DNA of 64,000 nucleotides from an uncultured Methylobacterium sp. (lineage in GTDB: Bacteria; Pseudomonadota; Alphaproteobacteria; Rhizobiales; Beijerinckiaceae): contig CAXDNE010000008.1 of the NCBI GenBank assembly GCA_963990595.1, positions 370 to 64,369 on the forward strand, in the 5' to 3' direction. This document shows, in pieces, positions 27,431 to 57,620 of this stretch. The notes under the pieces were generated by a model that did not search any database, was not told the DNA's origin, and saw nothing but the letters and a program-made list of their open reading frames with translations. Numbering within the stretch: the stretch's first letter is position 1; each line of letters opens with the position of its first letter. Both the position numbers and the translations under genes were made by a program.

Positions 27431-27497
27431 TGGCCGAAAGCTGCTGGTCCGCTTCGGAGCGGTGCGGCCGAAAAAGCGGACGAGCTCCTACCGACCC
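27431..27497. repeat. Junction palindrome, copy A (67 bp)
   Basis: TGGCCGAAAGCTG..GTCCGCTTCGG...CCGAAAAAGCGGAC..CTCCTACCGACCC; 58/67 identical to 49293-49359. Confidence 0.85.
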
Positions 27498-27696
27498 GAT
27501 GCGGTCGCCAAAGAGCCGTTCGATGGACCTTGAAAGCGGACCTCCTTGATCGCCTCGCCGGCGAAGCCGTCGACGTCCGCTATCGCCGAGGATGCGGTCT
27601 GCATGCTGACGACCTTGGGCTTCGATCTCATGGCGGGCAGCCGGACATCGCGTCGTTCCACCCGGACCTTTCCATGAGGCGCGGCATTGAGGGGGG

Positions 27697-28119
27697 ATGA
27701 CCCATGCCCCCTCGAACGCTTCGCCCTGTGCTCTCGTCGTCGATGACGACGAAATGGTCCGAATGGCCGCGGTCGACATCCTGGAGGACGCGGGGTTCAC
27801 GACCTTCGAGGCCGCCTCCGGCGACAAGGCGTTGCTCGTGCTCGAAGAACACCATGCGTGCATCACGCTGCTGTTCACCGACGTGCAGATGCCGGGCGTG
27901 CACGATGGCTTCGCCCTCGCTCGCAAGGTCGCGAGCGCCTATCCTCACATCTCGATCGTCGTTGCGTCGGGGCAGGCCAAGCCCGGACCGAGCGATCTGC
28001 CGGACGGAGCACGCTTCATCGGAAAGCCGTTCAGCGCGGACATCGTGCATCACCACCTGCGCGAGGTTCTGCCGGACGAGCAGAAGCCCGAGCCCTTGCG
28101 CAAAAAGAACCCCGCCTGA
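27697..28119 (+). CDS. Single-domain response regulator (receiver)
   Basis: LVVDDD, LFTDVQMPG, VASG and FIGKPF. Confidence 0.92.
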   Translation: MTHAPSNASPCALVVDDDEMVRMAAVDILEDAGFTTFEAASGDKALLVLEEHHACITLLFTDVQMPGVHDGFALARKVASAYPHISIVVASGQAKPGPSDLPDGARFIGKPFSADIVHHHLREVLPDEQKPEPLRKKNPA

Positions 28120-28206
28120 GAGTTGCGGTCATATCCGCCGTCAGCACTCGCAGCTACGCAAGCATTTGGAATGACTGTCAGCACCTCATAGCGGAAACGG
28201 CGGCGA

Positions 28207-28350
28207 CTTCCGCTTCGATGCATCTGCCATCCAGAAGCGGACAAGCGGGAAACCACCCGACCCAGTCGTTTAGGGGCGCCTGCCAATGCGACCGGAGCTG
28301 GCCGAAAGCGGAATGGCTGCTGTTAGGCTCAGATTGCGGGCAAGCGGACG
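28207..28350. repeat. Junction palindromes, degenerate copies
   Basis: TTCCGCTTC...GAAGCGGAC...CCCGACCC (28207-28263) and TGGCCGAAAGCGG...AAGCGGAC (28299-28350). Confidence 0.7.
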
Positions 28351-28687
28351 TTCAGCGCGGCTAATTTAATGGGCTCAGAGTGCCGTCCTCAGGACCATCC
28401 ACATCATACCACTGAAGGTCTGCATCAAGTTGCGAATCGGGCGTGACGCTGCTGATGCTGGCGCAAGCTGACGCCCAGTTTTTGCGCTCCGGACCAATGA
28501 TATGTTTTGCAACTCAAAGTTATTCTTAAAGCAGATCCAACTTAACCGGAGGATACGATCGTCAACCTGAGGCTGATTTAGGTCTTGCGTGCGCTGGATT
28601 TGATCGCCTTGACCTCCCCAAGGGCATCCTTGGCGAAGTCCCGCCCTGTGGCGGTAACCACCAAGCCGGCCCTAGCCGCGCGTGCCG

Positions 28688-28860
28688 TCAGATGGCGAAC
28701 TCGACGTCCGGCACCACCGCGAGCCGCTCGGGCAACGGCGCCTCGAGCGTGAACCGCACCCAGCCGGGCGGTAGTCGATCCCGGCCTTGCCGCCCATCTC
28801 GGACGCGAGCGCCCGCTCGATCAGGCGTAAGCCCAACCCGGCGGTCGTCTCTCTGATCGA
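28688..28860 (-). pseudogene. C-terminal fragment of an HWE-type histidine kinase
   Basis: GLGLRLIERALASEMGGKAGIDYRP, then a frameshift to (G)VRFTLEAPLP...; the N-terminal part is missing. Confidence 0.6.
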
Positions 28861-29088
28861 GGCCTCGGCCGGAAGTCTGTGACGCGCAGGGTCGCCGATC
28901 CGCATCGCGCCCGGCAGACGCACCCGTACCCGCATCATGCGCCGTTGCACAAAGGGCCCGAATTCCGCTCCTTGGTCATCCGGACGACCAAGCTTCGACC
29001 TTCCGCGGCAGGATCCCGTGCACGTCCGTCCCGCAGCCTTTTGAAGCTTGCAACTTGCGCGGACCTATATATGTACGTGTGAGCATAT

Positions 29089-30492: not shown

Positions 30493-31158
30493 ATGGTTTC
30501 TCGACCCAGAGGGCCGGCCGAGGCGGGAACCCGTCCGCGCGGCCGCAGGACCAAAGACATGCCGGACGGTCGGCAGGCCCTTCTCCGTGCGGCGACCCTC
30601 GCGTTCTCCAACGACGGCTTCGACGGAGCCGACATCCGGAGCATTTCCATCGCTGCGGGGGTCAGCCCGAACCTGGTTCGCATCCATTTCGGCAGCAAGG
30701 CGGAGCTCTGGGAAGCCTGCCTCGACTTAATCGTGACGGCGACGACGCCTGTCATCGACGAGGTCGGAAAGCTTTCCAGGCAATCGGATAGGCCCCTTTA
30801 CGAACGTCTGAGCAATCTCATCACCACGGTCGCGAACTTCTACGCGGTCCATCCGGAGGTAAGGGATTTCGTCTTCCACCACGGGTCGGACGCCCCCGAG
30901 CGAGCGGTGATGGTGACGGAGCGCCTCCTCAGGCCGGCCTACGAGGCCTGCCGTTCGTTGTTCGCAGCCGGCATCGAGGCCGGGATCGTGCGCAGCAGCC
31001 ATCCGGCCCTGTTCTTCTCGCTGCTCAACGGTGCCGTGGGCCAGCCGCCCGCCTTCCCGGCGATGCTGAATCGGCTCGCGCCCGACATCGACGTCGAAGA
31101 GGCGCGCAGGCGCATGGCCAAGACCGTGGTCGCATCGCTGCTTCACCGGGCCGCCTGA
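30493..31158 (+). CDS. TetR/AcrR family regulator
   Basis: AATLAFSNDGFDGADIRSISIAAGVSPNLVRIHFGSKAELW. Start uncertain (30493 or 30559). Confidence 0.9.
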   Translation: MVSRPRGPAEAGTRPRGRRTKDMPDGRQALLRAATLAFSNDGFDGADIRSISIAAGVSPNLVRIHFGSKAELWEACLDLIVTATTPVIDEVGKLSRQSDRPLYERLSNLITTVANFYAVHPEVRDFVFHHGSDAPERAVMVTERLLRPAYEACRSLFAAGIEAGIVRSSHPALFFSLLNGAVGQPPAFPAMLNRLAPDIDVEEARRRMAKTVVASLLHRAA

Positions 31159-31707
31159 CCCGACCAGCCTTCTCCCGACGTCGATGGCGCCGGACCGAGC
31201 GACGGGACGCCGGCATCACCAGCCGGGTCCCGGCTGGCCAGCGGTCCCGGGCACGATGGTGAAGATTGAGAGAGCCGCCATGCCGCTCACCTTCGTTCGA
31301 CGTCCATCCTCTCACGGAGGCCGACCACGCCTCCGCATAGGACGCTGGGCCTTCGGCTTCGCCCCCTCGCCGGAAGTCCAGCCAGCAGGCCGCGCGGGCA
31401 ATAAGCCCGATCCCCGCGCGGCCTCCGACCTCGCCGACTTCCGGGGGGCGGTCCGCGGCAAGGAAAGCCTTCGCCGGTGCCGGTGGACCGAAATCCAGCC
31501 GCGGCAGGATCATCGGCTACCCCCGTGCCGAAGCCATCACTTGTTCGAAGAACTTCGAACCCATCGCCTTAAGCCGCGGTGGAGAACTTCGTCTCGGCTG
31601 CCGCCAGCGACGGCAAGTCAGTCGTATCGTTCAAGCGTTCAGGGCCGCCTGCCCGTAGCGTCCCTGCTCCGGCCCGAGGGCCGAAGCACCATCGGCCGGG
31701 GGGCTCA

Positions 31708-38291: not shown

Positions 38292-38600
38292 TCACTGATC
38301 GAGAAGACCGGCGAGCTTCATCGCCACGCCCTGCGAGCCCTGGACCTTGAGGCGGCCGGTAGAGAATGCGATCGTCGGGCTCAGCTTGCCCCGCACCAGC
38401 TTAAGAAGGTTGTCGGAACTCAGCTTCATCACCGTATCGGCCTCGCCGCCCTCGCCGGTGGAGACGTTCACGCCGCCGCCGGTCGCGTCCACGAGGATGC
38501 TGCCGCCATCGGTGAGATCGAACCGGACCCGGTAGCCGAGGGCACTGAGCGCCTCCGACCGTTGCTCGATGCAATCGACCAGTTGCCCGAGATCCGCCAT
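38292..38600 (-). CDS. SCP2 sterol/lipid-binding domain protein
   Basis: [37 protein letters not shown]. Confidence 0.9.
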
Positions 38601-38664
38601 TGCTCTTCTCCGCATCGCCTCGAATGAATGCCCCCGCCCGGTTTTCGGCCGAGGAAGCTTCCCG

Positions 38665-40449
38665 TCAGAACATCGCCTCGTCGAGCGCCATCATCGCGCC
38701 CTTGCCGGACTTCACCGCCGCCAGCAGGCCCGCGACCTGGGGCAGGATGCGCTCCATGTAGAAGCGGGCCGTCGCGAGCTTAGCCTCGTAGAAGTCGCGC
38801 TCGTCCGTCCCGGCCTCGAGCGCGGTGTGGGAGACCTTGGCCGTGCGCAGCCACATGTAGCCCAACGCCACCAACCCGAAGAGACGCAGGTACTCGGTGG
38901 CGGCGGCACCCGCCTCCTCCGGATCCTTGAGGCCCCGCTGGGCGATGTGAGCGGTGGCGAGTTGTAGGGCGCCGAAGGCCTTCGACAGGGGCTGGGCGAG
39001 GGGGGCGAGGTCGTCGTCCTCGATCGCCTCGTCCAGGGCAGCGAGCACCGGGTGGAAGAAGCTGCGCAGGTAGCGGCCGGCATGGGCCGGGAGTTTGCGG
39101 CCGACGAGGTCGAGGGCCTGGATGCCGTTTGTGCCCTCGTAGATCATCGAGATCCGGGCGTCGCGGACGTACTGCTCCATGCCGTGGTCGCGGATGAAGC
39201 CGTGGCCGCCGTAGACCTGCATGCCGATGCTCGCCGATTCGAAGCCGAGATCGGTGAACAGCGCCTTCACGATGGGGGTCATCAGGGCGGAGAAATCCTC
39301 AGCCCGCCGCCGCTCGGCCGGATCGGGATGGTGCTCCATCACGTCGAGGCTTCGGGCGACCCAGGCGCCGAGCGCCCGGCAGCCCTCGTTGTACGCGCGG
39401 ATCGTCATCAGCATCCGCCGCACGTCCGGGTGGACGAGGATCGGGTCGGCGGGCAGGTCCGGCCGCTTGGCGCCCGAGAGCGCGCGGCCCTGGAGGCGCT
39501 CCTTCGCGTAGGCGATGGCGCCCTGGTAGGCGGCCTCGCCCGCGCCGAGCCCCTGGATGCCGACCGACAGGCGCTCGCTGTTCATCATCGTGAACATCGC
39601 GCGCATGCCCTTGTGCGGCTCGCCCACGAGCCAACCCGTGGCGTCGTCGAACGACATCTGGCAGGTGGCCGAGGCCTTGATGCCCATCTTGTGCTCAAGG
39701 GCGCTACAGGTCACGCCATTGCGCTCGCCCGGCGAACCGTCCGCCCGCGGCAGGAATTTCGGCACGAGGAACAGGCTGATACCCTTCACGCCCTTGGGCG
39801 CGTCGGGGATCTTGGCCAGCACCAAGTGGATGATGTTCTCGGTGAGGTCGTGGTCGCCCGCCGAGATGAAGATCTTCGAGCCGGTGACGCGAAAGGACCC
39901 GTCGTCCTGCCGCACGGCCTTGGTCCGCAGGAGGCCGAGATCGGTGCCGCAATGGGGTTCGGTCAGGCACATCGTGCCGGACCACGTGCCGTCCACGAGC
40001 TTCGGCAGGTAGGCCGCCTTCAGCTCCTCCGAGGCGTGGCCCTCGATCGCCTGATAGGCCCCGTGGCTGAGGCCGGGATAGAGGCCGAAGGACAGGTTCG
40101 TGGAGCAGATCATCTCCTCGACGAGCTTGTTGATGCCCGCCGGCAGGCCCTGGCCGCCATAGGCGGGGTCCGCGCCCATGGCGGTCCAGCCGCCCTCCCG
40201 GAACGCCTTGTACGCCTCGGGAAAGCCCTTCGGCGTACGGACGACGCCGTTCTCCAGGCAGCAGCCCTCCTCGTCGCCGGAGGCGTTCAGCGGCAGCAGG
40301 CGCTCCGTGCAGAACTTGCCGGCCTCCTCCAGGATGGCGTCGGCGACGTCGGGGGTGAAGTCTTCCAGGCCCGGCAGGGGCTGGGCGTCGGCGTGCAACT
40401 CGTGCAGCACGAAGCGCATGTCGCGCAAGGGAGCCTTGTAGGTCTGCAT
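38665..40449 (-). CDS. Acyl-CoA dehydrogenase
   Basis: YKAPLRDMRF, GTMCLTEPHCGTDL, GSKIFIS, EHKMGIKASATC and IYEGTNGIQALDL. Confidence 0.96.
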   Translation of the reverse strand: MQTYKAPLRDMRFVLHELHADAQPLPGLEDFTPDVADAILEEAGKFCTERLLPLNASGDEEGCCLENGVVRTPKGFPEAYKAFREGGWTAMGADPAYGGQGLPAGINKLVEEMICSTNLSFGLYPGLSHGAYQAIEGHASEELKAAYLPKLVDGTWSGTMCLTEPHCGTDLGLLRTKAVRQDDGSFRVTGSKIFISAGDHDLTENIIHLVLAKIPDAPKGVKGISLFLVPKFLPRADGSPGERNGVTCSALEHKMGIKASATCQMSFDDATGWLVGEPHKGMRAMFTMMNSERLSVGIQGLGAGEAAYQGAIAYAKERLQGRALSGAKRPDLPADPILVHPDVRRMLMTIRAYNEGCRALGAWVARSLDVMEHHPDPAERRRAEDFSALMTPIVKALFTDLGFESASIGMQVYGGHGFIRDHGMEQYVRDARISMIYEGTNGIQALDLVGRKLPAHAGRYLRSFFHPVLAALDEAIEDDDLAPLAQPLSKAFGALQLATAHIAQRGLKDPEEAGAAATEYLRLFGLVALGYMWLRTAKVSHTALEAGTDERDFYEAKLATARFYMERILPQVAGLLAAVKSGKGAMMALDEAMF

Positions 40450-40453
40450 CGGG

Positions 40454-44185: not shown

Positions 44186-44617
44186 CTAGCGCGCGCGCCG
44201 CGTCTTGTCGGGCTCCGCGTCGTCGAGGCCGGCCAGAGCGTAAAGCCTGAGCTTCTCCAGTTCGCCGAGCGTCTCGATGAGCGCCTTCTGCTGATCGACG
44301 AGTTGATCGATCCGGCCCTGAACCTTCTTCAGAAGGTCGCGCCACTGCTCTCTCTGGGTCGGATCGGCCGCGTAGAGGTCGAGATATTCCTTGATCTCGC
44401 GGAGCGAGAAGCCCAACCGCTTGCCCCGTAGGATGAGGATCAACCGGACCTTGTCGCGATGGGCGAAGATGCGGGTATTCCCGGCGCGCTGCGGGGTCAG
44501 CAGCCCCTTGTCCTCGTAGAAGCGCACCGTCCTCGCCGTAACCCCCAATTCCGTGGCGAGTTGGGTCACGGTGTACAGCGTTTCGGACACAGACGGCCTT
44601 TTCGTGAAGAACGTCAT
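44186..44617 (-). CDS. MerR family regulator (LiuR-like)
   Basis: YTVTQLATELGVTARTVRFYEDKGLL...RGKRLGFSLREIKEYLDLY. Confidence 0.92.
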   Translation of the reverse strand: MTFFTKRPSVSETLYTVTQLATELGVTARTVRFYEDKGLLTPQRAGNTRIFAHRDKVRLILILRGKRLGFSLREIKEYLDLYAADPTQREQWRDLLKKVQGRIDQLVDQQKALIETLGELEKLRLYALAGLDDAEPDKTRRAR

Positions 44618-44647
44618 CGTATGCCCCGAGGGTCCTTAGGGTCAACA

Positions 44648-46369: not shown

Positions 46370-46426
46370 GTTCCCCCCTTCCTGCGTCGCTCTCTTCGGA
46401 AGCGCTTCGTTCGAGCAGGTCTGGAT

Positions 46427-46440
46427 TGACGTATACGTTA
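46427..46440. promoter_or_regulatory. LiuR-like operator upstream of fadD
   Basis: TGACGTATACGTTA palindrome resembling the LiuR TGACGTnnACGTnA consensus; a near-identical copy lies at 46795. Confidence 0.7.
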
Positions 46441-46794
46441 GTCTATATCCGCATAGGTAAACCAAACGCAAGCCCCCACCCCGGCATTCGATCGCGGCGG
46501 TGTCCGGTCGAACTTGGGTTCTGCCGCGCCCGACGGATGACGGGACGCCGGTGGTCGACCTTCGAGATCTCGCTGCCGACGAGGATCCGAGGCGCGGCCC
46601 GCCGTTCCGTGCCGAGATCGGCGGCCCTCACACCGCGCGCGCGAATATTTGCGCAACACGTCGTTGTGCGCTGCAGCGAGAGCGCCGTTGGTGCCCAAAG
46701 GCCACATCCATTGGCGATTACATTCGGCCGATCGAATTTCGGTGAGAAAGGGGCAATCCGTGCTTGCAACTTTTTGCAGCATTAGTCAGCATCA

Positions 46795-46808
46795 TGACGT
46801 ATAGGTTA
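46795..46808. promoter_or_regulatory. LiuR-like operator upstream of fadL
   Basis: TGACGTATAGGTTA, one mismatch from the 46427 site. Confidence 0.62.
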
Positions 46809-46974
46809 TGTTAGTGCCACAAGCCGGCGCGATGAGTCGGTCTCGGCACCTCGGCATCCGATCTTGCCAGCCGCCGTTTCTCCCGCCCGTGCCTGCTAAG
46901 CCTGGGCGCTCCGGAACGGACTCAAAATTCGAAATCCGCATCGGCTCAATCAGCGGATTCGTGTGGGGGAAACC

Positions 46975-48288
46975 ATGAATTCACGCCTTCGCATCGGCTC
47001 GATTGCCGTCCTCACCGCGCTCTGCGCCGTTACGGAAGCATCTGCGGGCGCATTCGGCCTGCGGGAGCAGAGCACGCAGGCCCAGGGCCTGGGATTCGCG
47101 GGTGCGGCGGCCGGCTCCGGCGGCGTGTCGTCGATGTTCTGGAACCCGGCCGTCATCACGATGCGGCCTGGCTTCGTCACCGAGCAGAACCTCACGTATC
47201 TCGGTCCCTCTGCGACCATCACCCCGTCCACCGGCACCAACCCGGCCTTCGGGGGCCTCGGCGGCTCGGGCGATATCGGCCAGGGCGCGGTGCTCCCGGC
47301 GGGTGCAAGCTCTTACCAAATCAACGACCGCCTCTGGCTCGGCATCTCCACCGGCGCGCCGTTCGGCCTGACTACCAAGCCGAACGAGGTCTGGGCCGGC
47401 GAGGTCTACGGTCGCTCTTCGCGAATCTTCTCGCTGGTCTTCAACCCGGTCGTCGGCTTCAAGGTGAACGAGTGGCTCTCGGTCGCCGCCGGTCCGAACA
47501 TCGAGTATTTCCGCCTAACCCTGCGCCAGGCCCTGCCGCTTCCCGGCCTGCCCCCGACGGCCTATCCCAGCTCCTTCCTGAAGGGTGAGTCCTGGGGTGC
47601 GGGCTTCACCGCGGGCGTGAACATCACGCCCTGGGAAGGGACGGCGCTCGGCATCGGCTACCGCTCCTCGGTGCATCACGACATCGACGGCTCGATCGGC
47701 GTGCCGATCCTCGCCCTGGCGCCGCTGGCCGGACAGGTGCGCGCAAACTTCAACACGCCGGAGAAGCTCAGCGTGGGCCTGACCCAGGCGGTGAGCCCGA
47801 TCGCCCGCGTGTCCCTCGGCTTCGAGTGGGACAACTGGTCGAGGCTCGGCACCGTCGGCATCGTGTCGAAGACGCTGGGCGTACCGGTGAACTCCCTGCC
47901 GCTGAACTACAAGGACGGGTATTACTACTCGATCGGCGGTGAGTACGACGTGAACGCCGCCCTGACGGTGCGCGCCGGCTTCGGCTACGAGACTTCGCCG
48001 ATCGACTTCAGCAACCGCTCGGTCCGCCTGCCGGACGGCGACCGCTACAGCCTGAACGTCGGTGCGAGCTACCGCTGGAACAATCAGCTGACGCTGAACG
48101 CCGCCTATTCTCACCTCTTCCTGGACCGCTCGCGTATCCTCGCGGGCATCGGGCGGGACTACAACGTTGGCAACATCGCCTTCGCGGGTGTGGTCGATTC
48201 GAGCGTCGACATCGTCTCGGTCGGCTTCCGCTACGCCTTCGGCGCCCCGCCGCCGCCGGCGCCCGTCCCGCTGGTCCGGAAGAACTGA
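46975..48288 (+). CDS. fadL: FadL/OmpP1/TodX outer membrane long-chain fatty acid transporter
   Basis: Signal peptide, AFGLREQS...GFAG, MFWNPA and RLPDGDR. Confidence 0.92.
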   Translation: MNSRLRIGSIAVLTALCAVTEASAGAFGLREQSTQAQGLGFAGAAAGSGGVSSMFWNPAVITMRPGFVTEQNLTYLGPSATITPSTGTNPAFGGLGGSGDIGQGAVLPAGASSYQINDRLWLGISTGAPFGLTTKPNEVWAGEVYGRSSRIFSLVFNPVVGFKVNEWLSVAAGPNIEYFRLTLRQALPLPGLPPTAYPSSFLKGESWGAGFTAGVNITPWEGTALGIGYRSSVHHDIDGSIGVPILALAPLAGQVRANFNTPEKLSVGLTQAVSPIARVSLGFEWDNWSRLGTVGIVSKTLGVPVNSLPLNYKDGYYYSIGGEYDVNAALTVRAGFGYETSPIDFSNRSVRLPDGDRYSLNVGASYRWNNQLTLNAAYSHLFLDRSRILAGIGRDYNVGNIAFAGVVDSSVDIVSVGFRYAFGAPPPPAPVPLVRKN

Positions 48289-48357
48289 TCAGGTTTCCGC
48301 CCAGCATTTGTCTTGACGGTAAATCGCAGCCTTCCAGGCAGATCGTACGGGATTGTC

Positions 48358-49135
48358 CGCCGCAACGACCAGGATCTCGTCCAGCCGGGTCGTGTAGCGC
48401 GGCGAGCGCATCTCGAACTTGGTCGACCATGCCCGCGCCGGGGTGAACCCGGCCGCGGCTGGGACGACCGCCCCGCGCCCGAAGCGCCGGTTGCAGGCAT
48501 CGAGCGCCGCCATCAGCGCGGCCCCCGCTCGCGGTCGAGCTGGCCGAGGCCGGGTATCGCTCGCTGGGAGGCGTGGAGAGGCAGGAGGTCCGTCGTGACC
48601 ACTCCGGCCTTCGAATAACAAAAGCCGTCCCGCCAGGTCTTGCGGACGCCATGCAGTGCGGCCTTCACCAGCACCAAAGTGTCGTTCGACGATTCCGGCA
48701 GGGTCACCACCGTCGAGACCGACCGCTGCAGCCGAGTCCGGTCGTGCTCGGAGGTGCGGAAGAAGACCGTGACGTGGTCGGTTCCGAACCCCTCCCGGCG
48801 GAGCTTTTCCCCGAGCCGGGTCGCGTTGGCGGCGACCGCCTGCTCCATCGTTGCGTGATCCTCGACCCGGTCGGAGAAGCTCCGGTTCACGGCGCAGCCC
48901 TTCCGAGTCGCGGCGACCTCCTCCAGGTCGAGACAGGCCTCGCCGCGTAGCTGCCGCAACAGCCGCTCGCCGACCACTGTCATGGCCTTGCGCACCGCCC
49001 GGGGGTCGAGATCGCGCACGTCGGCGGCGCTCTCGCACCCCAGCGCCCCAAGCTTGCGGGCGTTCACCGGGCCAACGCCCCAGATGTCCTGCGTCAAGTT
49101 CTGGGCCATCCAGTGGTCGTGGGCGGGTCGGTCCG
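48358..49135 (-). pseudogene. umuC: 5'-truncated, frameshifted second umuC copy
   Basis: C-terminal half nearly colinear with 15710-16494 (DIWGVGP...SPRYTTRL); N-terminal half missing; frameshift at ~48520. Confidence 0.88.
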
Positions 49136-49292
49136 GTCGTAGCCCGAACGGCTCTGTCAACAAGTGGAGCGGGAATACGGGTATCGGCACCCGCCATGTC
49201 TGCTTTGGAGATGCCATCGAACCCCTGCGAACGACTGGCTTGGGCGCAAAGTCGAATGTCCGCTCGCGATGGCGATCCGGCGTGACGGGGTT

Positions 49293-49359
49293 TGGCCGAA
49301 AGCTGTCGGTCCGCTTCGGAGCAGTACGACCGGAAAAGCGGACGGCCTCCTATCGACCC
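49293..49359. repeat. Junction palindrome, copy B (67 bp)
   Basis: 58/67 identical to 27431-27497; degenerate half-copies just upstream (ATGTCTGCTTTGG ~49196, ATGTCCGCTC ~49256). Confidence 0.85.
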
Positions 49360-49513
49360 TGGTAAGACACAACAACGCAATATCTGCCGAGCTGAAAGCA
49401 GACGCGCTCTGCCGGTCCCGTTGGAGCTGTGTCGCTCGTAGCTGGCCGCTTCCACCGCCGTGCCATAATGGGCCTACTACGCAGGATATTTTCGCCGATC
49501 ACAGTCCCGTCGG

Positions 49514-49891
49514 TTAGCGGGCATGGACGATGGCTTCAACGATTTCCTTCGTGCCGTAGGGTTTGGCCACGAACAGGCCGTGGTCTGGCACCTCTTCGTT
49601 GGCGAGACGCTGCCGCCCGGAGGTCAGAATAAGTTGGATATCGGGCCACAACGCGTGAACGCGTGCGGCTAGGGTTTTGCCGCACATGGACCCGGGCATG
49701 TCGATGTCAGTGAACAGCACGCCGATGTTCGTATGGCGCTTCAGGATGGCCCAGGCCTCGTCAGCATCGCAGGCCTCGACCACCGCCAAGCCAGCATCTT
49801 CCAGCATCTCGACAGCGTACAGGCGCACGAATTCGTTGTCCTCGACGACGAGGACCATCGAGGTATTCAAAGGGGGCTTTGCGGACATCAC
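49514..49891 (-). CDS. Single-domain response regulator (receiver)
   Basis: VLVVEDNE, LFTDIDMPG, LTSG and FVAKPY. Confidence 0.92.
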   Translation of the reverse strand: MMSAKPPLNTSMVLVVEDNEFVRLYAVEMLEDAGLAVVEACDADEAWAILKRHTNIGVLFTDIDMPGSMCGKTLAARVHALWPDIQLILTSGRQRLANEEVPDHGLFVAKPYGTKEIVEAIVHAR

Positions 49892-50078
49892 GCATCAACT
49901 TGGATCCCGCAGGTTGGTTTCCGCCGCTCCATCCAAGACCGGAAGCGGCGCGTAGTCCCGTTCACTGCGGGGAATGACGGCGGGCAGAAGCTAGACCGGA
50001 GCCGGAACGTCGTCTGCGAGTTATGTCCCGGCGTCGTACCGGGCGTGTTGTCCCGATAGGCATGCACCCGAGGAGCGC

Positions 50079-51056
50079 ATGAACGAGATTCCCGAATTGA
50101 CGAGCGACGGCTGGACGCTGGCAAATTTCACCGGCGCGATCCACCGGGGCGGCGTCGGCCTCTGGGCGTGGTCGCCGACCCAGCGGAAGGCTCAGCTCGA
50201 CAGCCTATGCTGTGAGTTCTGGGGGGTCTCGGAAACCGTCATCGACATCGACGCGCTATTCGCGCGCGTCAGCGCCGACGACCGCACAGCGATGGTGGAG
50301 GAATGGGCGGCCAGCGAGCGGAACCCACATCCCTACAGTTTCGACTTCCGCATCGGCGATGGTGCGGACGCACGCTGGATCTCGGCGCGAGGCGTCGGCG
50401 GGGATGCCGGTCGGGTCGGGGAATGGATCCAGGCCATTTTCCTCGACGTCACTGACCGCAAGAGGGCCGAAGAAGCCGAGCGGCTTCTAACTGCCGAGCT
50501 CGCTCACCGCGTCTCGAACATGTTTGCGGTGGCCCGGGCGCTGACGTCCATCGTCGCCCGAGACGCCAAGTCGGCGCCACTATTCGCTGAAGACCTGTCG
50601 CGGCGGTTCGGCGTGCTTCACGAGGCGACGGCCCTAGCGACGCGCGCGCAGCGTAACGACCACGGAAACGTCCCGATGGTCGTCCTCGCAGAGCGCATTT
50701 TGGCACCGTACCGGAACGGCGCCAATATCGAGATCGACATTGACGACACGGTGGTCGTTCCCCCAAACAAGATCAATGACTTCGCGATGATCTTCCACGA
50801 ACTCGCCACTAACTCCGCTAAGTACGGTGCCCTGTCGGGAGGCGGGTCACTGAGAGTTCAGGGACAGATGGGCGGCGATGGGTTGCGCGTGACGTGGCAC
50901 GAAGGTCCAGCGGATGCCGACGTGCCCAAGGCCGATGGGACTGGGTTCGGCTCGCGGCTACTCAAGCAGACTATCGAGCGCAGCTTGAGCGGTCGCTTCG
51001 AGCGCACCATCGACGGGAGTGGCCTACGCTTCGAGATGACCGTCCCAAAGGCCTGA
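50079..51056 (+). CDS. HWE-family sensor histidine kinase with PAS-like domain
   Basis: ELAHRVSN, FHELATNSAKYGALS, TWHE and GFGSRLL. Confidence 0.92.
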   Translation: MNEIPELTSDGWTLANFTGAIHRGGVGLWAWSPTQRKAQLDSLCCEFWGVSETVIDIDALFARVSADDRTAMVEEWAASERNPHPYSFDFRIGDGADARWISARGVGGDAGRVGEWIQAIFLDVTDRKRAEEAERLLTAELAHRVSNMFAVARALTSIVARDAKSAPLFAEDLSRRFGVLHEATALATRAQRNDHGNVPMVVLAERILAPYRNGANIEIDIDDTVVVPPNKINDFAMIFHELATNSAKYGALSGGGSLRVQGQMGGDGLRVTWHEGPADADVPKADGTGFGSRLLKQTIERSLSGRFERTIDGSGLRFEMTVPKA

Positions 51057-51435
51057 CGCACGGACCGCTTAAGGTGCGATGTCAGCAGCTCTATCGGATG
51101 GTACGTACGCCCACGCCAGGTGCCCTATGGCCGACTTAGCCAATTGGCGGGCATCCGCTCTTCCGATCTATTTCTCAAGAATCCGACGGACCGAAATCCA
51201 CCCGAAGCTGCCTCGGCATCAAGTTCGCCTCAGCATGTCGGAATGCGCTGCGACCATGGCTGCCACGATGCTCGCGTAGACGCGCCAGCGAAGGATCGGT
51301 GGATGGTCTTAAAGGCAGATTACCCCGGGCAATACCAAACGGCCTACGACGTCACAGGGGGGCATAACAGGGCAGCTATAACTCTCCTCACGCGTTGCGG
51401 CATGAGTTTGCTGCAGCGCATGATCAGGTGATTCA

Positions 51436-52473
51436 ATGACTGAAACGAAACCGCGGGTCGCGCTGGGGCTCCAGGGGGGAGGCTCCTACGGTGCCTACGG
51501 ATGGGGGGTGATCGACCGACTCCTAGAGGAGCATGTCGAAATCGTCGCCGTCAGCGGCGCGAGCGCGGGTGCGCTCAACGGCTCCGCCTTGGTGTCGGGA
51601 CTCGCCGTCGGTGGCGACGACGGAGCCAGGGATGCGCTGACCCGCCTTTGGCAGACTACGGCCGATCGATCGCCGCTGCGGAGCTTCGATGATTTCGGTG
51701 CCTTCGCACCGATGCTGAACCCATTCCTCACGCACTCGTTGGCCGCTTTCCGTGAGGTCTCGCCCTACTTCGCGCCGTTCCTGCCATCCATACGTGACAT
51801 GCACCTGCTGCGCTCGGTGGCGCGCGCGAGCCTTGATCTGGATCTGGTCGCCCGGCAGACGCGGGTGCCGTTCTTCGTGTCGGCAACCGATATCCTGTCT
51901 GGCGCGGCGCGGGTGTTCACAGGGAACGAGGTGACGCTGGATGCGCTGATGGCTTCGTGTTGCCTACCGGAACTGTTCGCACCGGTGGAGATCGCCGGGC
52001 GGCGGTACTGGGACGGCGGCTACTCAGCCAATCCCGCGCTGGAGCCGCTGGTGTACGGCGGGCATGGTGCCACCGACCTCATCGTCGTACAGCTGACGCC
52101 GTTCGTCACGGAGGACGTCGGCGTATTGCCGTCAGAGCGGGCGGGCCGCGTGAGCGACATTAGCTTCAACGCATGTCTAATCCGCGATCTGAAGACCCTT
52201 GCCGAGCTCAAGCGCTATGCCCTCGCATCGGTTACGCGGGACGCGCACATGCAGGCCGTGGCGGACATCAATATCCATCTGCTCCATGCACCGGGCGAAC
52301 TGTCGAGCGGGGGCGTGAGCAAACTCGACACGCGCTGGTCGACGCTGACTGGCTTGCGCGACCTCGGTCGCGAGACAGCAGAGCGATGGCTCGCGGACGT
52401 AGGTGAGCGGATCGGCTCGGGTTCGAACCTGCAGGCTCTCGAAGAGGCGGTGAACGCGCCTCACGCAGCCTGA
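51436..52473 (+). CDS. Patatin-like phospholipase
   Basis: LQGGGSYG, GASAG and WDGGY motifs. Confidence 0.9.
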   Translation: MTETKPRVALGLQGGGSYGAYGWGVIDRLLEEHVEIVAVSGASAGALNGSALVSGLAVGGDDGARDALTRLWQTTADRSPLRSFDDFGAFAPMLNPFLTHSLAAFREVSPYFAPFLPSIRDMHLLRSVARASLDLDLVARQTRVPFFVSATDILSGAARVFTGNEVTLDALMASCCLPELFAPVEIAGRRYWDGGYSANPALEPLVYGGHGATDLIVVQLTPFVTEDVGVLPSERAGRVSDISFNACLIRDLKTLAELKRYALASVTRDAHMQAVADINIHLLHAPGELSSGGVSKLDTRWSTLTGLRDLGRETAERWLADVGERIGSGSNLQALEEAVNAPHAA

Positions 52474-52735
52474 GTCGAAGCTCAGCCTGTCTCCTACGTG
52501 AAGACCGTGGTGCGGGGTGTCATCCCCGCTCCGCTACCGAAGCGCAGCTTTATACCGGCTGCGGCGGTGTAGTTGCCCTGGCTGCCCCCAAGGCAGCGGT
52601 TCGACGTCGGTAGTGGGCCCGTCGGTTGAAGACGCCAGCAGTCTGTCGATCTAAGGCAGTGCATGCGCAGTGCTCACAGAACTAGGTTGGCCTAGCCCAT
52701 CTGGGCCGCGGACCAACCTATAACGAAACCCGGTC

Positions 52736-52795
52736 ATTCCGCTTCCGACCCAACTAAGTCATTCACATACAGCCATGCGGATCCCGAAAGCGGAC
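52736..52795. repeat. Junction palindrome, degenerate copy
   Basis: ATTCCGCTTCCGACCC...CCCGAAAGCGGAC, between the patatin and GntR genes. Confidence 0.65.
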
Positions 52796-52848
52796 GCATG
52801 TTTCGCGGTGTCACGATGCGTCAAAGGCTTTACTGCGCTGATCAGAGC

Positions 52849-53631
52849 CTATCGCTCGACTTTCTGACGTGTCGAAACCCGAACCCGATTCAGCCTGCGC
52901 AAGGATACCTGCAGACGCGCTTCCGATGCCTTGATCTCATTTAGGGCGTGGTGCGTGTAGTGGATGTGTGCCTCAGCGGCATTGCCGGCTTCCTCCGCGT
53001 TCCCGGCCATCACGCTGTCGAAGATCGCCCGATGTTGCGCACGCAGTTGGTCGCGCGTCTCCGGACGGGAGAACAAGGTCTCGCGGTTCTCGATCACACC
53101 CTGACGGAGCAGGCCGGACAACGCCCGCATCGTGTGCAGCACAACGAGGTTGTGGCTCGCCTCGTAGACCGCGATGTGCAGGTCGACATCCGCCTCCGCC
53201 TCCTCGCGCCGGACGCCGCTCTCGTGAGCGCGGTCGATGCGATCCATACAGAGGCTGAGCCGCTCGCGATCGACGCTGTTCGCGCGTTCGGCCGCGAGGC
53301 GGGCCGCTAGCCGTTCGGTCGTCGCCCGGAACTCCAGGTAATCGTCCACGACCTCCGCATGGGAGGCGATGAGCGCGATCAGCGGGTCCGTGATCCCGCG
53401 GCCGAGGGCGGCCACCGAGCGTCCGGTGGGCGTTTGGACGATGAGGCCTTCGTCCTCCAGGATCTTGATGCCCTGTCGCAAGGTCGGGCGCGACACGTTG
53501 AGCTGCACGGCCAGATCACGCTCGGGCAGCAGATGATCGCCGGGGCTGAGAGAACCCTCGCGGATCAGGTCCTTCAGGTGGCGCGCCGTGCTCTCGGCAG
53601 CGCTCGCCCCCTTGATCGGGTCCTCCTCCAT
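52849..53631 (-). CDS. GntR/FadR-family regulator (LldR/GlcC-like)
   Basis: LLPERDLAVQLNVSRPTLRQGI HTH and FCD domain (ADVDLHIAVYEASHN). Divergent from lldP-lldD. Confidence 0.92.
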   Translation of the reverse strand: MEEDPIKGASAAESTARHLKDLIREGSLSPGDHLLPERDLAVQLNVSRPTLRQGIKILEDEGLIVQTPTGRSVAALGRGITDPLIALIASHAEVVDDYLEFRATTERLAARLAAERANSVDRERLSLCMDRIDRAHESGVRREEAEADVDLHIAVYEASHNLVVLHTMRALSGLLRQGVIENRETLFSRPETRDQLRAQHRAIFDSVMAGNAEEAGNAAEAHIHYTHHALNEIKASEARLQVSLRRLNRVRVSTRQKVER

Positions 53632-53702
53632 CTCCCGCCCCCACTCACCCGTACCAACCCGCCCGGCCTGACAACTGTAGCTCGGGCAAGCGCCATGTCC
53701 AG

Positions 53703-53731
53703 TTGACATGATTGGTAAAATAGTTTTACCA
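53703..53731 (+). promoter_or_regulatory. TTGACA -35 box overlapping a perfect FadR-family operator TGGTAAAA-TAG-TTTTACCA
   Basis: TTGACA at 53703-53708; inverted repeat at 53713-53731 matches the TGGT...ACCA consensus of LldR/GlcC/PdhR. Confidence 0.85.
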
Positions 53732-53884
53732 GAACATTGCCTGCGGTTTAATAATGAGCCCTGGCGTCGGTTCAGCTCGATGAAGGCGGCCCTGGTTCTG
53801 CGCGCGTACGCCACACGCGCGGGGCGACGATAGGTGCTGGCTCGATCACGGCTCGGATCGGACCACCATCGGGAGGACCATGCC

Positions 53885-55552
53885 TTGAGTTGGAACCAAG
53901 TCTACGATCCCCTGGGCAGCGCGCTCTGGTCGACGGCGCTCGCCGCCCTGCCGATCGTCGTGCTGCTTGGCGGCATCGGCCTGCTGCACCTGAAGGCGCA
54001 CGTCGCGGCTCTGCTGGGCCTCGTCGTGGCGCTCTGCGTCGCCGTGATAGGCTTCGGGATGCCGGCCCCGATGGCCGGGGCCACCGCCGTCTACGGCGCG
54101 GCGTTCGGCCTGCTGCCGATCGGCTGGATCATCCTCAACGTCATCTTCCTCTACCGGCTTACGGAGCGGACCGGGCAGTTCGACATCCTGCGCGACTCGA
54201 TTGCCGGCATCACGCCGGATCGGCGGCTGCAACTCCTGTTCATCGCGTTCTCGTTCGGCGCCTTCTTCGAGGGTGCGGCCGGCTTCGGCACGCCGGTGGC
54301 GGTGACGGCCGCGATGCTGATGGGCCTCGGCTTCACGCCGCTGGCCGCTGCGGGCCTCTCGCTCATCGCCAACACGGCGCCCGTCGCCTACGGCGCGCTC
54401 GGCGCTCCCGTGATCGCGCTCTCAGCGGTCACGGGGCTCGATCTCATCGCGCTGTCCGCGATGATCGGCCGGCAGCTGCCGTTCTTCTCCCTCCTCGTGC
54501 CGTTCTGGCTGATCTGGGCGTTCGCCGGCCGCAAGGGCATGCTGGAGGTCTGGCCGGCGCTGCTCGTGGCCGGTCTCTCGTTCGCGGTTCCGCAGTATCT
54601 CGTCTCGAACTTCCACGGCCCCTGGCTCGTAGACGTGGTCGCGGCGATCTGCTCGATGGCGGCGCTCGCCGGCTTCCTGCGCGTCTGGCAGCCCGCTCGC
54701 ATCTGGACCGCAACCGATGTCGCCGCAGGAACGGCTCCGGTCGCTGAGCGGCGGACTCACTCCCCCGGCACGGTGTTCCGCGCCTGGCTGCCCTGGCTGA
54801 TCCTGTCGCTGTTCGTCTTCGCCTGGGGCACGCCGCAGTTCCGCGCCTGGCTCGACGCCCTCTGGGTGTGGAAGATGCCGGTGCCCTACCTGCACAACCT
54901 GGTCTTCAAGATGCCGCCGGTTGTCGCCGCGAGTCACAGCGAGGCCGCGATCTATACCCTCAACCTGCTCTCGGCGACGGGCACCGGCATCCTGCTCTCG
55001 GCGATCGTGGGCGGCCTGATCCTCGGCTTCAGCCCGCACAAGCTGCTGCGCGAGTACGGCCGCACCGCTTGGCTCGTGCGCTACTCCCTGATCACGATCT
55101 CGGCGATGCTGGCGCTGGGCTACGTCACCAAATACTCGGGCACCGACGCGACGCTGGGCCTCGCCTTCGCGCAGACCGGCTGGATCTACCCGTTCTTCGG
55201 GGCGATGCTCGGCTGGCTCGGCGTGGCGCTGACGGGTTCTGACACGGCCTCGAACGTGTTGTTCGGCGGCCTGCAGAAGATCACCGCGGAGCAGCTCGGC
55301 CTGTCGCCGACCCTGATGGCGGCCTCGAATTCCTCGGGCGGTGTCATGGGCAAGATGATCGATGCGCAGTCGATCGTCGTCGCCTCCACGGCGACGCAGT
55401 GGTACGGCGGAGAGGCGAAGATCCTGCGCTACGTCTTCTTCCACTCGATCGCGCTCGCCTGCCTCGTCGGCCTCCTGGTGATGCTGCAGGCCTACGTGCC
55501 GCCATTCACCGCCATGGTGCCGGCCGCGGCGATCCCGACCCTCGCTCATTGA
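53885..55552 (+). CDS. lldP: L-lactate/glycolate permease
   Basis: WNQVYDP, FGAFFEGAAGFGTP, ALTGSDTASNVLFG and GKMIDAQSI. TTG start after GGAGG. Confidence 0.93.
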   Translation: MSWNQVYDPLGSALWSTALAALPIVVLLGGIGLLHLKAHVAALLGLVVALCVAVIGFGMPAPMAGATAVYGAAFGLLPIGWIILNVIFLYRLTERTGQFDILRDSIAGITPDRRLQLLFIAFSFGAFFEGAAGFGTPVAVTAAMLMGLGFTPLAAAGLSLIANTAPVAYGALGAPVIALSAVTGLDLIALSAMIGRQLPFFSLLVPFWLIWAFAGRKGMLEVWPALLVAGLSFAVPQYLVSNFHGPWLVDVVAAICSMAALAGFLRVWQPARIWTATDVAAGTAPVAERRTHSPGTVFRAWLPWLILSLFVFAWGTPQFRAWLDALWVWKMPVPYLHNLVFKMPPVVAASHSEAAIYTLNLLSATGTGILLSAIVGGLILGFSPHKLLREYGRTAWLVRYSLITISAMLALGYVTKYSGTDATLGLAFAQTGWIYPFFGAMLGWLGVALTGSDTASNVLFGGLQKITAEQLGLSPTLMAASNSSGGVMGKMIDAQSIVVASTATQWYGGEAKILRYVFFHSIALACLVGLLVMLQAYVPPFTAMVPAAAIPTLAH

Positions 55553-55634
55553 GGCTGCCGGGCCGGGGGCGAGCGATCCCTCCCGGCCATCCTTCTGCTC
55601 TGGCGATGGCGCCACGCGCCCACGGGGATCCGAG

Positions 55635-56780
55635 ATGCGACTGAAGAGCTGCCACAGCTTCCACGATTTCCGCCGCATGGCGAAGGCCCGGCTGCCCGGG
55701 CCGATCTTCGATTACATCGACGGGGCGGCCGACGACGAGGTCACGTACCGGCGCAACACGACGGCCTTCGACCGGTGCGACCTGGTGCCGAACGTCCTGC
55801 GCGGCGTCGGCGATATCGACCTGTCCGTGACGGTCATGGGCCAGCGGCTCGCGCTGCCGGTCTACTGCTCGCCCACGGCTCTTCAGCGGCTATTCCATCA
55901 TCAGGGGGAACGCGCCGTCGCCGCTGCGGCGGGCAAGTACGGGACGATGTTCGGCGTCTCCTCGCTCGGGACCGTAAGCCTGGAGGAAGCGCGTCGCATC
56001 AGCGGCGGTCCCCAGGTCTACCAGTTCTACTTCCACAAGGACCGCGGCTTGAATCGCGAGATGATGGCCCGGGCCAAGCAGGCCGGCATCGAGGTCATGA
56101 TGCTGACCGTCGACAGCATCACGGGAGGGAACCGCGAGCGCGACAAGCGGACGGGCTTCTCGATCCCGTTCCGGCTTACCCTCGCCGGGATGATGCAATT
56201 CGCGATGAAGCCGGCCTGGGGGATCAACTATGTCACGCACGAGAGCTTCAAGCTCCCGCAACTTGATGGCCACGTGGATATGGGCGGCGGGGCACTCTCT
56301 ATCAGCCGCTACTTCACCGAGATGCTCGATCCCAGCCTGTCATGGGACGACGTCGCCGCCATGGTGCGTGAGTGGGGCGGCCAATTCTGCCTGAAGGGCG
56401 TGATGTCGGTGGAGGACGCCAAGCGTGCGGTCGACATCGGCTGCACCGGCATCATCCTGTCGAACCACGGCGGGCGCCAGCTCGACGGCTCACGCACGGC
56501 CTTCGACCAGCTCGCCGAGATCGTGGACGCGGTCGGCGACCGGATCGACGTGATCATGGACGGCGGCGTCCAGCGCGGCACCCATGTCTTGAAGGCGTTG
56601 TCAGTCGGAGCGAAGGCCGTCGGCCTCGGACGCTACTACCTGTTCCCCCTCGCTGCGGCTGGTCAGGCCGGGGTCGAACGCGCATTGGACCTGATGCGGT
56701 CCGAGATCGAAAGGGACATGCGGTTGATGGGTTGCGCATCCGTCGATCAGCTGACCCGGAGCAACTTGCGCTTCTCCTGA
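55635..56780 (+). CDS. lldD: FMN-dependent alpha-hydroxy acid (L-lactate) dehydrogenase
   Basis: FDYIDGAADDE, SNHGGRQLDG and MDGGVQRGTHVLKAL. Confidence 0.92.
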   Translation: MRLKSCHSFHDFRRMAKARLPGPIFDYIDGAADDEVTYRRNTTAFDRCDLVPNVLRGVGDIDLSVTVMGQRLALPVYCSPTALQRLFHHQGERAVAAAAGKYGTMFGVSSLGTVSLEEARRISGGPQVYQFYFHKDRGLNREMMARAKQAGIEVMMLTVDSITGGNRERDKRTGFSIPFRLTLAGMMQFAMKPAWGINYVTHESFKLPQLDGHVDMGGGALSISRYFTEMLDPSLSWDDVAAMVREWGGQFCLKGVMSVEDAKRAVDIGCTGIILSNHGGRQLDGSRTAFDQLAEIVDAVGDRIDVIMDGGVQRGTHVLKALSVGAKAVGLGRYYLFPLAAAGQAGVERALDLMRSEIERDMRLMGCASVDQLTRSNLRFS

Positions 56781-57079
56781 CGGGGTCCGGGCTTGCCGCT
56801 GTCGCGGGCCGTTGCAAGGCACCGCGATGCGGTTGAGCGCGGGTCCGCGAATCCTAGGAAAGACGGAGCATCGCCGGTCGTCCAGGCTTTTCAGCCGGAT
56901 CGCAATCGGGATGCGCGCCCGAGGGGATCGAGCCCTTGGAAGATGTCCGGCGCCGTGTCGCAGCCGACGGGCCGGATCAACTTGGTCCGGTCGATCATCG
57001 GCTCCCGCATCGACGGCAGCTCGGGCGTGGCGCTTAAGCCGGGTGAAATACGGCTCACCGGAACGTTGAGGAGGTCATC

Positions 57080-57301
57080 TTGCGTCCGCTCACGCCGCAC
57101 GAACTCAAGATCTTGGCGGCCCTCGACGACGAATTCATGAGCGCATCAGTCATCAAGATCCGGTCTGGCCACTCCAGCTCCGATCCCATCGACGGCGTCT
57201 GCGCGGCCTGCATCGAACTTGAGCGAAGAGGTCTGGCGGAGCGGACAGGGTCAGGTCGACGGTCGAAAAACCGCTGGCGTCGATCGCCGCAGATCAACTG
57301 A
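57080..57301 (+). CDS. Small hypothetical protein, possible winged-HTH
   Basis: 73 aa, LKILAAL...CIELERRGLAER; followed by AT-rich DNA. Confidence 0.35.
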   Translation: MRPLTPHELKILAALDDEFMSASVIKIRSGHSSSDPIDGVCAACIELERRGLAERTGSGRRSKNRWRRSPQIN

Positions 57302-57475
57302 GCTTGAATTGGGAAATTATATATCGAAGACAAATTTCTAGATTTATTGGTTTTAGTTTAACCTTTCTTACTTCGATATTTAAGCTCGGAGGGGTTTGTA
57401 TTAAAGCGAATTTTTGCTATTTGATTACTCGAATTAAGATCTGTCGCTTCGCTTTCGGCATGAATTTGCTGCTGC

Positions 57476-57620
57476 CGAGCGTCCGCTTCTCCCGATCTGT
57501 GCCCGAAACCGGAACTGCAGAAATCCACCCGGCGCAGTCATTCAGACCCCGTCCACGGGACGGGATCTGGCCGAAAGCGGTCTGGCAGCTTTCGGTCGCG
57601 CGAGGCGCTAAACCGGACAC
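57476..57620. repeat. Junction palindromes, degenerate copies
   Basis: GTCCGCTTC...CCCGAAACCGGAA and TGGCCGAAAGCGG...CAGCTTTCGG...AAACCGGAC (from 57568). Confidence 0.65.

Follow-up and report, generated by a model that had tools for sequence, protein, structure and literature searches.

A genus-wide hairpin repeat of Methylobacterium marks the joints of gained, lost and reordered gene blocks

What joins the gene blocks of a Methylobacterium genome to one another, and do the short repeats between them take part? The question arises from a 64,000-nucleotide (nt) stretch of DNA from an uncultured Methylobacterium sp. (the window, in whose positions all coordinates below are given). An earlier note had seen in it a family of imperfect palindromes separating functionally distinct gene blocks, and had suggested that they are recombination sites or scars of a gene-capture system acting in trans and resembling either an integron or the repetitive extragenic palindrome (REP) elements. 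We find that the palindromes belong to a genus-wide hairpin-repeat family, and that blocks of genes have been gained, lost and reordered with their joints in a 10-11 nt core of the repeat. On balance we favor the view that the elements are the Methylobacterium form of an alphaproteobacterial hairpin repeat, kin in kind to REP/BIME, RIME and Bru-RS, and that the core of the unit is a preferred, probably site-specific, point of breakage and rejoining.

Block joints in near-identical strains

The repeat unit is ~44 nt long and consists of an ATGAC box followed by GGCCGAAAGC, a 9-nt loop and GCTTCGG; its copies in the window, lettered A to E, and the blocks that run between them are listed in Table 1. 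Looking up the proteins of the window in public assemblies returned the same DNA in other arrangements. Blocks 1-3 are present, absent or reordered among strains that are 99.7-99.9% identical, and the switches fall within the core, either between T and GGCCGAAAGC or directly after GGGCGC. The suggestion that the repeats are sites or scars of recombination is borne out by these arrangements. The boundaries fall at the base of the unit hairpin, within the element and not at its outer ends.

Block 3, itself 99.7-99.9% identical among its copies, is preceded by at least six left arms (in the window, L059, L061, L070, L072 and L081), all of which switch between T and GGCCGAAAGC. Its right contexts number at least six, and all switch directly after ...CTGAATGACCGGGACGGGCGC (GGGACGGGCGC); the ~50 nt that precede this right switch are also conserved among the copies, with block-specific differences. 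Block 2 is missing as a single piece in L059/L060 and 19 similar places, an isolate genome included: window positions 38513-49316 are there joined directly to 57565-64000, and one hybrid element is left. In L046 and five others, a defense-like island that ends in a small serine recombinase takes the place of all the DNA left of 49289, with the joint between ...CCCGGTTGT and GGCCGAAAGCTGTCGG. The resolvase-side left arm of L046 is also found joined to the copy C core at 28299 (run X3). This island (L046 4990-9062) carries ABC-3C-type defense genes (Pfam MC2, CTD6), and its recombinase gene, encoding 194 amino acids, ends ~150 nt from the B core. Exact-pattern scans of genome and metagenome contigs for the resolvase-side junction and for an empty block 3 site gave no match.

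Block 1 has differing neighbors in L056/L059, L057, X3 and L073. It ends at GGCTTGGGCGC, and the ~46-nt linker before the B core consequently differs between the window and L059/X3; the truncated umuC' gene that flanks this linker is 99.7% identical between them. A GGDEF-PAS block is found after block 1 in X3 and after block 3 in L073. Left of B, L048 matches the window at 99.96% identity; right of B the figures are 95% and 92%, and copy E is lacking. Across other strains, breakpoints within copy B lie at 49247/8, 49289-49293, 49297-49300 and 49316, and those within copy C at 28253 (IS91-like, L057), 28299 (X3) and 28300 (X17). Exchange of the same kind is seen between two species, where L011 and L034 have in common a right arm of at least 949 nt that is 99.5% identical and follows unrelated left arms, the switch falling between T and GGCC. 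Because several of these arrangements each occur in many independent assemblies, isolates included, assembly chimeras are unlikely.

The repeat family and its relatives

Within the window, copies A and B are strong, C and E are partial, and D and the element near 51128 are degenerate relics, so the family does occur at the sites first named for it, in very different states of preservation. The best pair (27426-27497 and 49288-49359) extends over 72 nt at 85% identity and 21.9 kb apart, much as had been noted. There are exactly four instances of the motif GGCCGAAAGC (27432, 28300, 49294, 57569), all of them on the + strand. For the octamer AAGCGGAC the count is 14 where 3.0 would be expected, a number that none of 100 shuffles reached, and its occurrences cluster in the intergenic stretches that the earlier note had picked out. 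A covariance model of the unit picks out B and A, both full copies, and also the partial E (19.4 bits, E-value 0.013); copy C, at 7.3 bits, is not significant.

The individual copies are assembled from recognizable parts. In copy A, the unit (27418-27461; ATGAC box plus hairpin GGCCGAAAGC-TGCTGGTCC-GCTTCGG) is followed by an inverted second unit up to 27497 and by a tail ending in AAGCGGAC at 27534-27541. Copy B opens with an upstream unit that ends in GGCTTGGGCGC (49237-49247) and continues through a variable linker (49248-49293), a main unit (49280-49323), an inverted second unit up to 49359 and a tail up to 49404. In both C and E, one element's tail precedes the 5' half of a unit; 3' of its core, C carries a degenerate type II arm (AAGCGGACGTTCAGCGCGGCT...), and the unit of E reads GGCCGAAAGC-GGTCTGGCA-GCTTTCGGTC. 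D and the ~51128 relic, unsupported by BLAST and nhmmer, were recognized by reading them against the family modules. Four operon gaps (31158-31579, 43911-44186, 46471-46963 and 49891-50079) hold no repeat copy, and the block that contains D and the ~51128 relic is collinear in every strain compared, so the repeats do not mark every junction, as had been claimed.

An exact scan for GGCCGAAAGCNNNNGGTCCGCTTCGG, with one genome per species, returned 37 loci, almost all of them in Methylobacterium, whose alignment resolves into a mosaic of four parts: an upstream module, the main unit, a right arm and a tail. The upstream module (~75 nt; ...CTGAATGnCCGGGATGGGCGCnAAGCCGAAyGTCCGGTTyTGCGCG...GATCCGGCATGACGTAGTCT) contains, ~60 nt upstream of the main unit, a related second unit that ends in GGGCGC; ATGACCGGGATGGGCGCAAAGCCGAACGTCCGGTT of this upstream unit and ATGACGTAGTCTGGCCGAAAGCnGCnGGTCCGCTT of the main unit align with a score of 36, compared with 14 +/- 5 for 2000 shuffles. 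The right arm is either type I, an inverted second unit (...AAAAGCGGACGGCCTCCTAyCGACCC), or type II, another arm, and the tail ends in AAGCGGACrTT. A full element therefore comprises two tandem units and then inverted copies; many copies are mosaics or fragments, and upstream modules of classes a and b, main units, type I and type II right arms and tails are seen in several combinations. The unit hairpin has a stem of 7-9 bp, and two diverged copies carry compensatory changes in it (A-T to G-C in L013b and C-G to T-A in L005b), showing that the hairpin is under selection. A third apparent case ('L059b') was withdrawn, as it is an IS110-family insertion junction.

The family is a feature of ordinary gene neighborhoods and is not restricted to cargo junctions as proposed. 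About 35 of the 37 copies are intergenic by a crude open reading frame (ORF) call, with orientations unbiased relative to the flanking genes (10 ++, 9 --, 8 +-, 8 -+). In other Methylobacterium these neighbors are ordinary metabolic, transport and regulatory genes (MFS transporters, short-chain dehydrogenases, regulators): transposases account for 2 of 112, and neither a recombinase nor a Y1 transposase is among the 25 commonest families of the 112. Neighboring copies in other loci are mostly co-oriented, like the all-plus copies of the window. Methylobacterium megaplasmids carry 1-4 copies per ~0.5 Mb, a density that suggests tens per genome. Copies within one genome are no more alike than copies between species, and outside the cores they are only ~70-85% alike. 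Scanning with a degenerate unit pattern that allowed mismatches gave matches no better than chance, and a loose regex-plus-folding sweep for hairpins was dropped as far too permissive. Literature searches for the motif itself and for Methylobacterium MITEs (miniature inverted-repeat transposable elements), REPs or their RAYT transposases returned no description of the family; it has no relation to the MiniMdi3 MITE of M. extorquens.

In kind, the family comes closest to REP/BIME/REPIN, RIME and Bru-RS; in behavior, it comes closest to integron arrays, pdif modules and tycheposon arrays. With the RAYT-associated REP, BIME and REPIN elements of gamma-proteobacteria it shares a short imperfect palindrome, inverted doublets (the type I core is two inverted units), mosaics with linkers, intergenic placement and genus-wide occurrence, and those elements are likewise known targets of insertion sequences (IS) and known join points of rearrangements. 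In architecture, the REP half of the original suggestion fits. Those elements number hundreds of copies, whereas there are tens here, and kilobase blocks are exchanged at the core here. A GTAG head of the REP type (GACGTAGTCT, then GGCC) is found only in the class a upstream module (~11 of 37 copies), 3-4 nt from the core, and other classes carry GGGACTGGAACT and similar sequences. REPs with a cognate RAYT are near-identical, whereas the copies here are ~85% alike, and RAYTs are reported to be rare in Alphaproteobacteria (PMC5581495).

Closer in taxonomy are RIME, Sm-repeats and the AB/C palindromes of rhizobia and Bru-RS1 and Bru-RS2 of Brucella, alphaproteobacterial intergenic palindromic mosaics with dozens of copies and no assigned function (PMC2573895); Bru-RS1 has been described as an insertion site of IS711 (PMC3163539). 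The present family has the construction of BIME and RIME, a few modules in different orders, and is an IS target like Bru-RS1 for IS711 or REP for IS110-type elements, with 41 IS91-family sites and an IS110-family element in one unit. The likeness to RIME and Bru-RS is one of published descriptions rather than of consensus sequences, and we found no block-exchange role described for RIME, Sm-repeats or Bru-RS, whereas block exchange is seen at the units here. The family does not have the properties of a MITE, since its outer ends are inconsistent, no duplication is seen and strains differ within the element, at the core. Nor is it a set of intrinsic terminators, given the lack of a T run after the hairpin and the unbiased orientation.

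The systems that resemble it in behavior differ in their sites. Integron attC sites, including the Vibrio VCR, are imperfect palindromes that recur, all oriented alike, at an array's joints, with the crossover inside a hairpin stem, and neither cassettes nor the blocks here carry their own recombinase. However, the sequences beside the cores (GGTTCTGGCC in A, GGGGTTTGGCC in B) do not fit GTTRRRY, the arms being GGCCGAAAGC and GCTTCGG, and cassettes are short, mostly single-gene and co-oriented, whereas the blocks here are multi-operon and the sites dispersed through the genome. In pdif modules of Acinetobacter plasmids and in IMEX, modules lie between short sites in many contexts and an Xer-type enzyme probably acts in trans, as the Xer-like candidate would here. 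The unit is GC-rich, by eye without the 11-6-11 arms and AT-rich center of pdif/dif, and pdif sites are inverted, whereas the units are in direct order, chromosomal and genus-wide. Tycheposons and tandem island arrays at tRNA genes are arrays of cargo with an attachment-site repeat at each joint, some of whose blocks lack an integrase (bioRxiv 10.1101/2020.12.28.424599). Their site is the end of a tRNA gene; here it is a dispersed hairpin repeat, with no integrase-bearing array member seen and no tRNA or tmRNA gene in the window.

Proposed exchange at the unit core and its alternatives

The core is also the target of a mobile element. An IS91-family element of 2.56 kb (about 2.53 kb elsewhere), which carries a gene for an Xer/IntI-like tyrosine recombinase, is inserted in the core of copy B (GGCCGAA^...^CGAAAGC) and at the equivalent position of inverted, diverged units beside block 1 (L057) and block 3 (L072). 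Among NCBIfam models, 'integron integrase' gives the recombinase its best match, 177 bits, which falls short of the cut-off; XerC and XerD score nearly the same. Relatives with 80-91% protein identity occur in 366 stretches of alphaproteobacterial genomes, and insertions at GGsCCGrA^ were found at 41 distinct sites across Alphaproteobacteria, 3 of them in the window species. The flank consensus of these sites is gGGCCG.a on the left and CG.aaGC.Gac.G.C.GcTtt.gg on the right, and the right flank begins with CG in 40 of 41. The target is the same unit, whether in Mesorhizobium, Rhizobium, Ensifer, Methylobacterium, Ancylobacter or sphingomonads, and the rebuilt target folds as a hairpin at 35 of the 41 sites. 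The four joint bases are identical on both sides at only 11 of the 41, and in this they would seem to resemble the coupling sequences of a staggered cut more than a plain duplication. At least one IS family thus makes specific use of the unit core. The unit at the far end of block 3 holds an IS110-family element. The IS91-family element is highly conserved across Rhizobiales, Sphingomonadales and others, always in the same hairpin unit and orientation, and is multicopy in Mesorhizobium, with 5-7 loci per genome among those listed.

How might the core act as a point of exchange? We propose that recombination between two cores in direct order would release the intervening stretch as a circle, and that this putative circular intermediate could re-enter at any other core. 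Such excision and re-entry would place multi-gene blocks in varied orders and contexts, always joined at a core. Cutting would be carried out by a recombinase in trans. For this role, which the earlier note had left without a named enzyme, we can offer only a candidate, the Xer/IntI-like tyrosine recombinase of the IS91-family element, with GGC^CGAA^AGC as the candidate position of cutting and insertion. It is conceivable, though we consider it doubtful as it stands, that these elements represent an undescribed alphaproteobacterial form of gene-block exchange, in which a dispersed hairpin would serve as universal attachment site and a recombinase spread by an IS91-family element, itself resident in these sites, would cut at that position and so excise, integrate and reorder any chromosomal stretch between repeats.

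Several observations count against site-specific exchange at the core. Blocks 1-3 carry no recombinase gene. Part of the junction evidence comes from metagenome and Logan contigs and from 30-nt loose ends or overhangs. D and E are collinear, with no breakpoint, in X9, X3 and X18 (X17 differs upstream of 52783, in relic D), and some breakpoints lie outside units: 28473 at the end of a TniB/TniQ transposon, and 21404 and one in L079 at IS21 elements. All partners share an identical core, which limits placement of the crossover to within 10-11 nt. For the type I copies, RNAalifold gives a long imperfect hairpin without compensatory change, and the folding energies of whole copies, computed on both strands as the earlier note had envisaged, are no better than those of shuffles. 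Finally, one contig has block 3 flanked on either side by the same 52-nt linker (TAAGCCGAATTTCCGG...GACGTAGTTT), an arrangement that simple core-by-core exchange does not predict.

Two of these places have further features. The 52-nt linker lies at 5522-5603 of L061 (reverse complement) and at ~9330-9400 of L071, and resembles a long target duplication; a model in which a block inserts and duplicates the linker fits one of the four contexts in which both linkers are known, and was rejected. At 28473, L056 has a TniB/TniQ transposon remnant (5547-9186) joined to block 1 in the absence of copy C, ~10 nt past a GGCGCAAGC motif that resembles the core of the upstream unit.

The strongest competitor, to which we give a real but distinctly minor share of the probability, dispenses with a dedicated enzyme: dispersed repeats would recombine by ordinary homologous or by short-homology (illegitimate, hairpin-stimulated) exchange, with joints in the core as the sole identical stretch. 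Palindromes stimulate deletion between flanking short repeats, and with ~70-85% likeness outside the cores any exchange would show at the conserved blocks; linkers that vary between strains at one locus further suggest frequent conversion. Yet several joints share only 10-12 nt of identity (for example, the E right arm and standard units), too short for efficient RecA exchange, and all six right joints of block 3 fall after GGGCGC despite the ~50 conserved nt before it. Enzyme-free recombination also has to accommodate the large number of independent events in strains that are more than 99.7% identical, and a mobile element with a tyrosine recombinase gene that uses the same few bases.

It is also possible, if improbable, that the IS91-family element itself moves the blocks by ISCR-like, one-ended rolling-circle transposition, with the units as start and stop signals. 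ISCR/IS91 elements do move adjacent DNA, and in three strains the element is inserted at junctions B, C and left of block 3. Most arrangements (window, L059, L046, L061, L073), however, have no IS91 copy beside the moved block, the ends of the element are unlike the unit, and what distinguishes a filled site from an empty one is a block with a core at either end rather than an IS plus a block. We regard it as slightly less probable still that the repeats act chiefly at the level of RNA or protein binding, as terminators, mRNA stabilizers, small RNA genes or nucleoid-protein sites, and that their position at the block joints is incidental. REP and BIME have such roles in E. coli, and the intergenic placement, the hairpin kept by compensatory changes, the CCUCCU of type I copies and the tolerance of G-T pairs on the GGCCGAAAGC strand would all suit them. 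The unbiased orientation and missing T run speak against such roles, as does the lack of any Rfam match at the gathering score in the window or at E 10 in 49180-49480, and they leave the exact junctions unexplained; as a second role, RNA or protein binding is compatible with exchange at the core. A true integron, with the repeats as attC sites and the blocks as cassettes of an integron integrase, is highly improbable despite the one-orientation array with hairpins at its joints, the crossover in the stem and the bulged stem base, as RYYYAAC/GTTRRRY (R and L) boxes are lacking, no IntI, attI or Pc platform is present in the window, the blocks are multi-operon stretches of 8-21 kb with their own regulators and genes on both strands, and copies are scattered over the genomes of ~30 species among ordinary genes, so that the integron half of the original suggestion has to be given up.

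The surrounding locus and the meaning of block exchange

Table 1. Repeat copies and gene blocks of the window
Feature	Position	Strand	Description
Copy A	27418-27542	+	nhmmer E-value 2.5e-19; covariance model 55 bits
Mini-block between copies A and C	27543-28206	+	Response-regulator receiver gene 27697-28119 (Pfam)
Copy C	28207-28385	+	Hairpin CTTCCGCTTC...GAAGCGGAC, tail CCACCCGACCCAGTCGTT...GACCGGAGCT, core GGCCGAAAGC 28300-28309
Block 1 (21 kb)	28300-49247		Copy C core to ...GGCTTGGGCGC
Copy B	49196-49404	+	nhmmer; covariance model 61.9 bits
Block 2 (8.3 kb)	49294-57568		Receiver, HWE histidine kinase, patatin, GntR, L-lactate permease, L-lactate dehydrogenase (FMN_dh) (Pfam)
~51128 relic	51128-51215	+	Element tail GCATCCGCTCTTCCGATCT...GAAATCCACCCGAAGC, inside block 2; read against E left arm
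Relic D	52736-52795	+	TCCGCTTCCGACCCAACTAAGTCATTCAC...CCGAAAGCGGACG, an inverted-unit end plus tail; intact unit absent
Copy E	57476-57655	+	Tail GTCCGCTTC...CCACCCGGCGCAGTCATTC...GGGACGGGATCT, then unit 57569-57597, then degenerate arm
Block 3 (~9.3 kb)	57569-64000, ~1.9 kb more beyond window end		Ends ...CTGAATGACCGGGACGGGCGC

The ORFs of the window were scanned with Pfam, and genes in the fetched loci were called by a simple rule based on GC content at third codon positions (GC3); the gene calls made earlier proved broadly right. Block 1 encodes AraC, a TetR-like regulator, an efflux system (MFP-FUSC-OEP), ETF, an acyl-CoA dehydrogenase, beta-oxidation genes, MerR, an acyl-CoA ligase, FadL and the truncated umuC'. 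Block 3 encodes TetR, a ferredoxin, a ferredoxin reductase, a P450, two unnamed genes and a DyP-like protein. The first receiver gene has a homologue on an M. oryzae plasmid, where the match is limited to 27634-28122 and copies A and C are absent. That plasmid is mobilizable, and its copy of the receiver (NZ_CP090353.1, locus L045, 1536-3487) is 88.6% identical, with a small recombinase gene adjoining. The supposed backbone gene truncated at 27430 found no backing: the ORF before copy A has no Pfam match and no tblastn match to plasmids. As stated earlier, copy B does abut a truncated gene, with its upstream unit adjoining the 5'-truncated end of umuC'. This N-terminally truncated umuC' (48289-49455) and a full-length umuC (15209-16494) form an inverted repeat, 86-90% identical and 32 kb apart.

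The window had been described as free of integrases, and no tyrosine or serine recombinase is found among its scanned ORFs, but a transposase is present. It belongs to an IS21-family element (19064-21656; inverted repeats 19064-19143 and 21577-21656) with istA at 19227-20765 (rve and Mu-transposase C domains) followed by istB. In the near-identical contigs L038, L039 and L043, the DNA left of window position 21404 is instead a large serine recombinase gene, absent from the window, fused to the last ~250 nt of the IS21 element. Positions 1-27000 form a defense- or phage-like island with zero repeat units, encoding a KAP NTPase, a sigma-70 region 4 protein, three metallophosphatases, an AAA ATPase and a 1142-amino-acid UvrD-helicase/PD-(D/E)XK nuclease with an M78 peptidase domain; it is missing in runs X9, X3 and X17, at least over 26000-28275. 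A pair of direct repeats (12004-12469 and 18372-18873, 75-84% identical, 6.4 kb apart) is unrelated to the hairpin family, and a 642-amino-acid ORF without Pfam match lies downstream of them. The window strain itself, tested over 47000-52000, recurs at ~99.9% identity in cold-seep, marine, groundwater, invertebrate and 'surface' metagenomes, and also in runs labeled as other organisms, the pattern of a laboratory or reagent contaminant Methylobacterium.

To our knowledge, alphaproteobacterial intergenic palindromes such as RIME, Sm-repeats and Bru-RS have been catalogued for 30 years with their role unassigned. Here a hairpin-repeat family marks, to within ten bases, swaps of operon-sized blocks among strains more than 99.7% identical, and the swapped functions are substantial ones: efflux with beta-oxidation, two-component signaling with lactate use, and a P450 cluster. 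Even if nothing beyond repeat-mediated recombination is at work, this would still be a clean case of repeats shaping gene order at the level of strains. If the exchange that we propose is real, it would amount to integron-like capture of whole operon clusters at sites scattered through the genome, and the units would constitute a simple, testable recombination site. And if a recombinase does act on them in trans, its action would account for the reshuffling of accessory metabolism in the absence of plasmids or phages, and would give these repeats a function.

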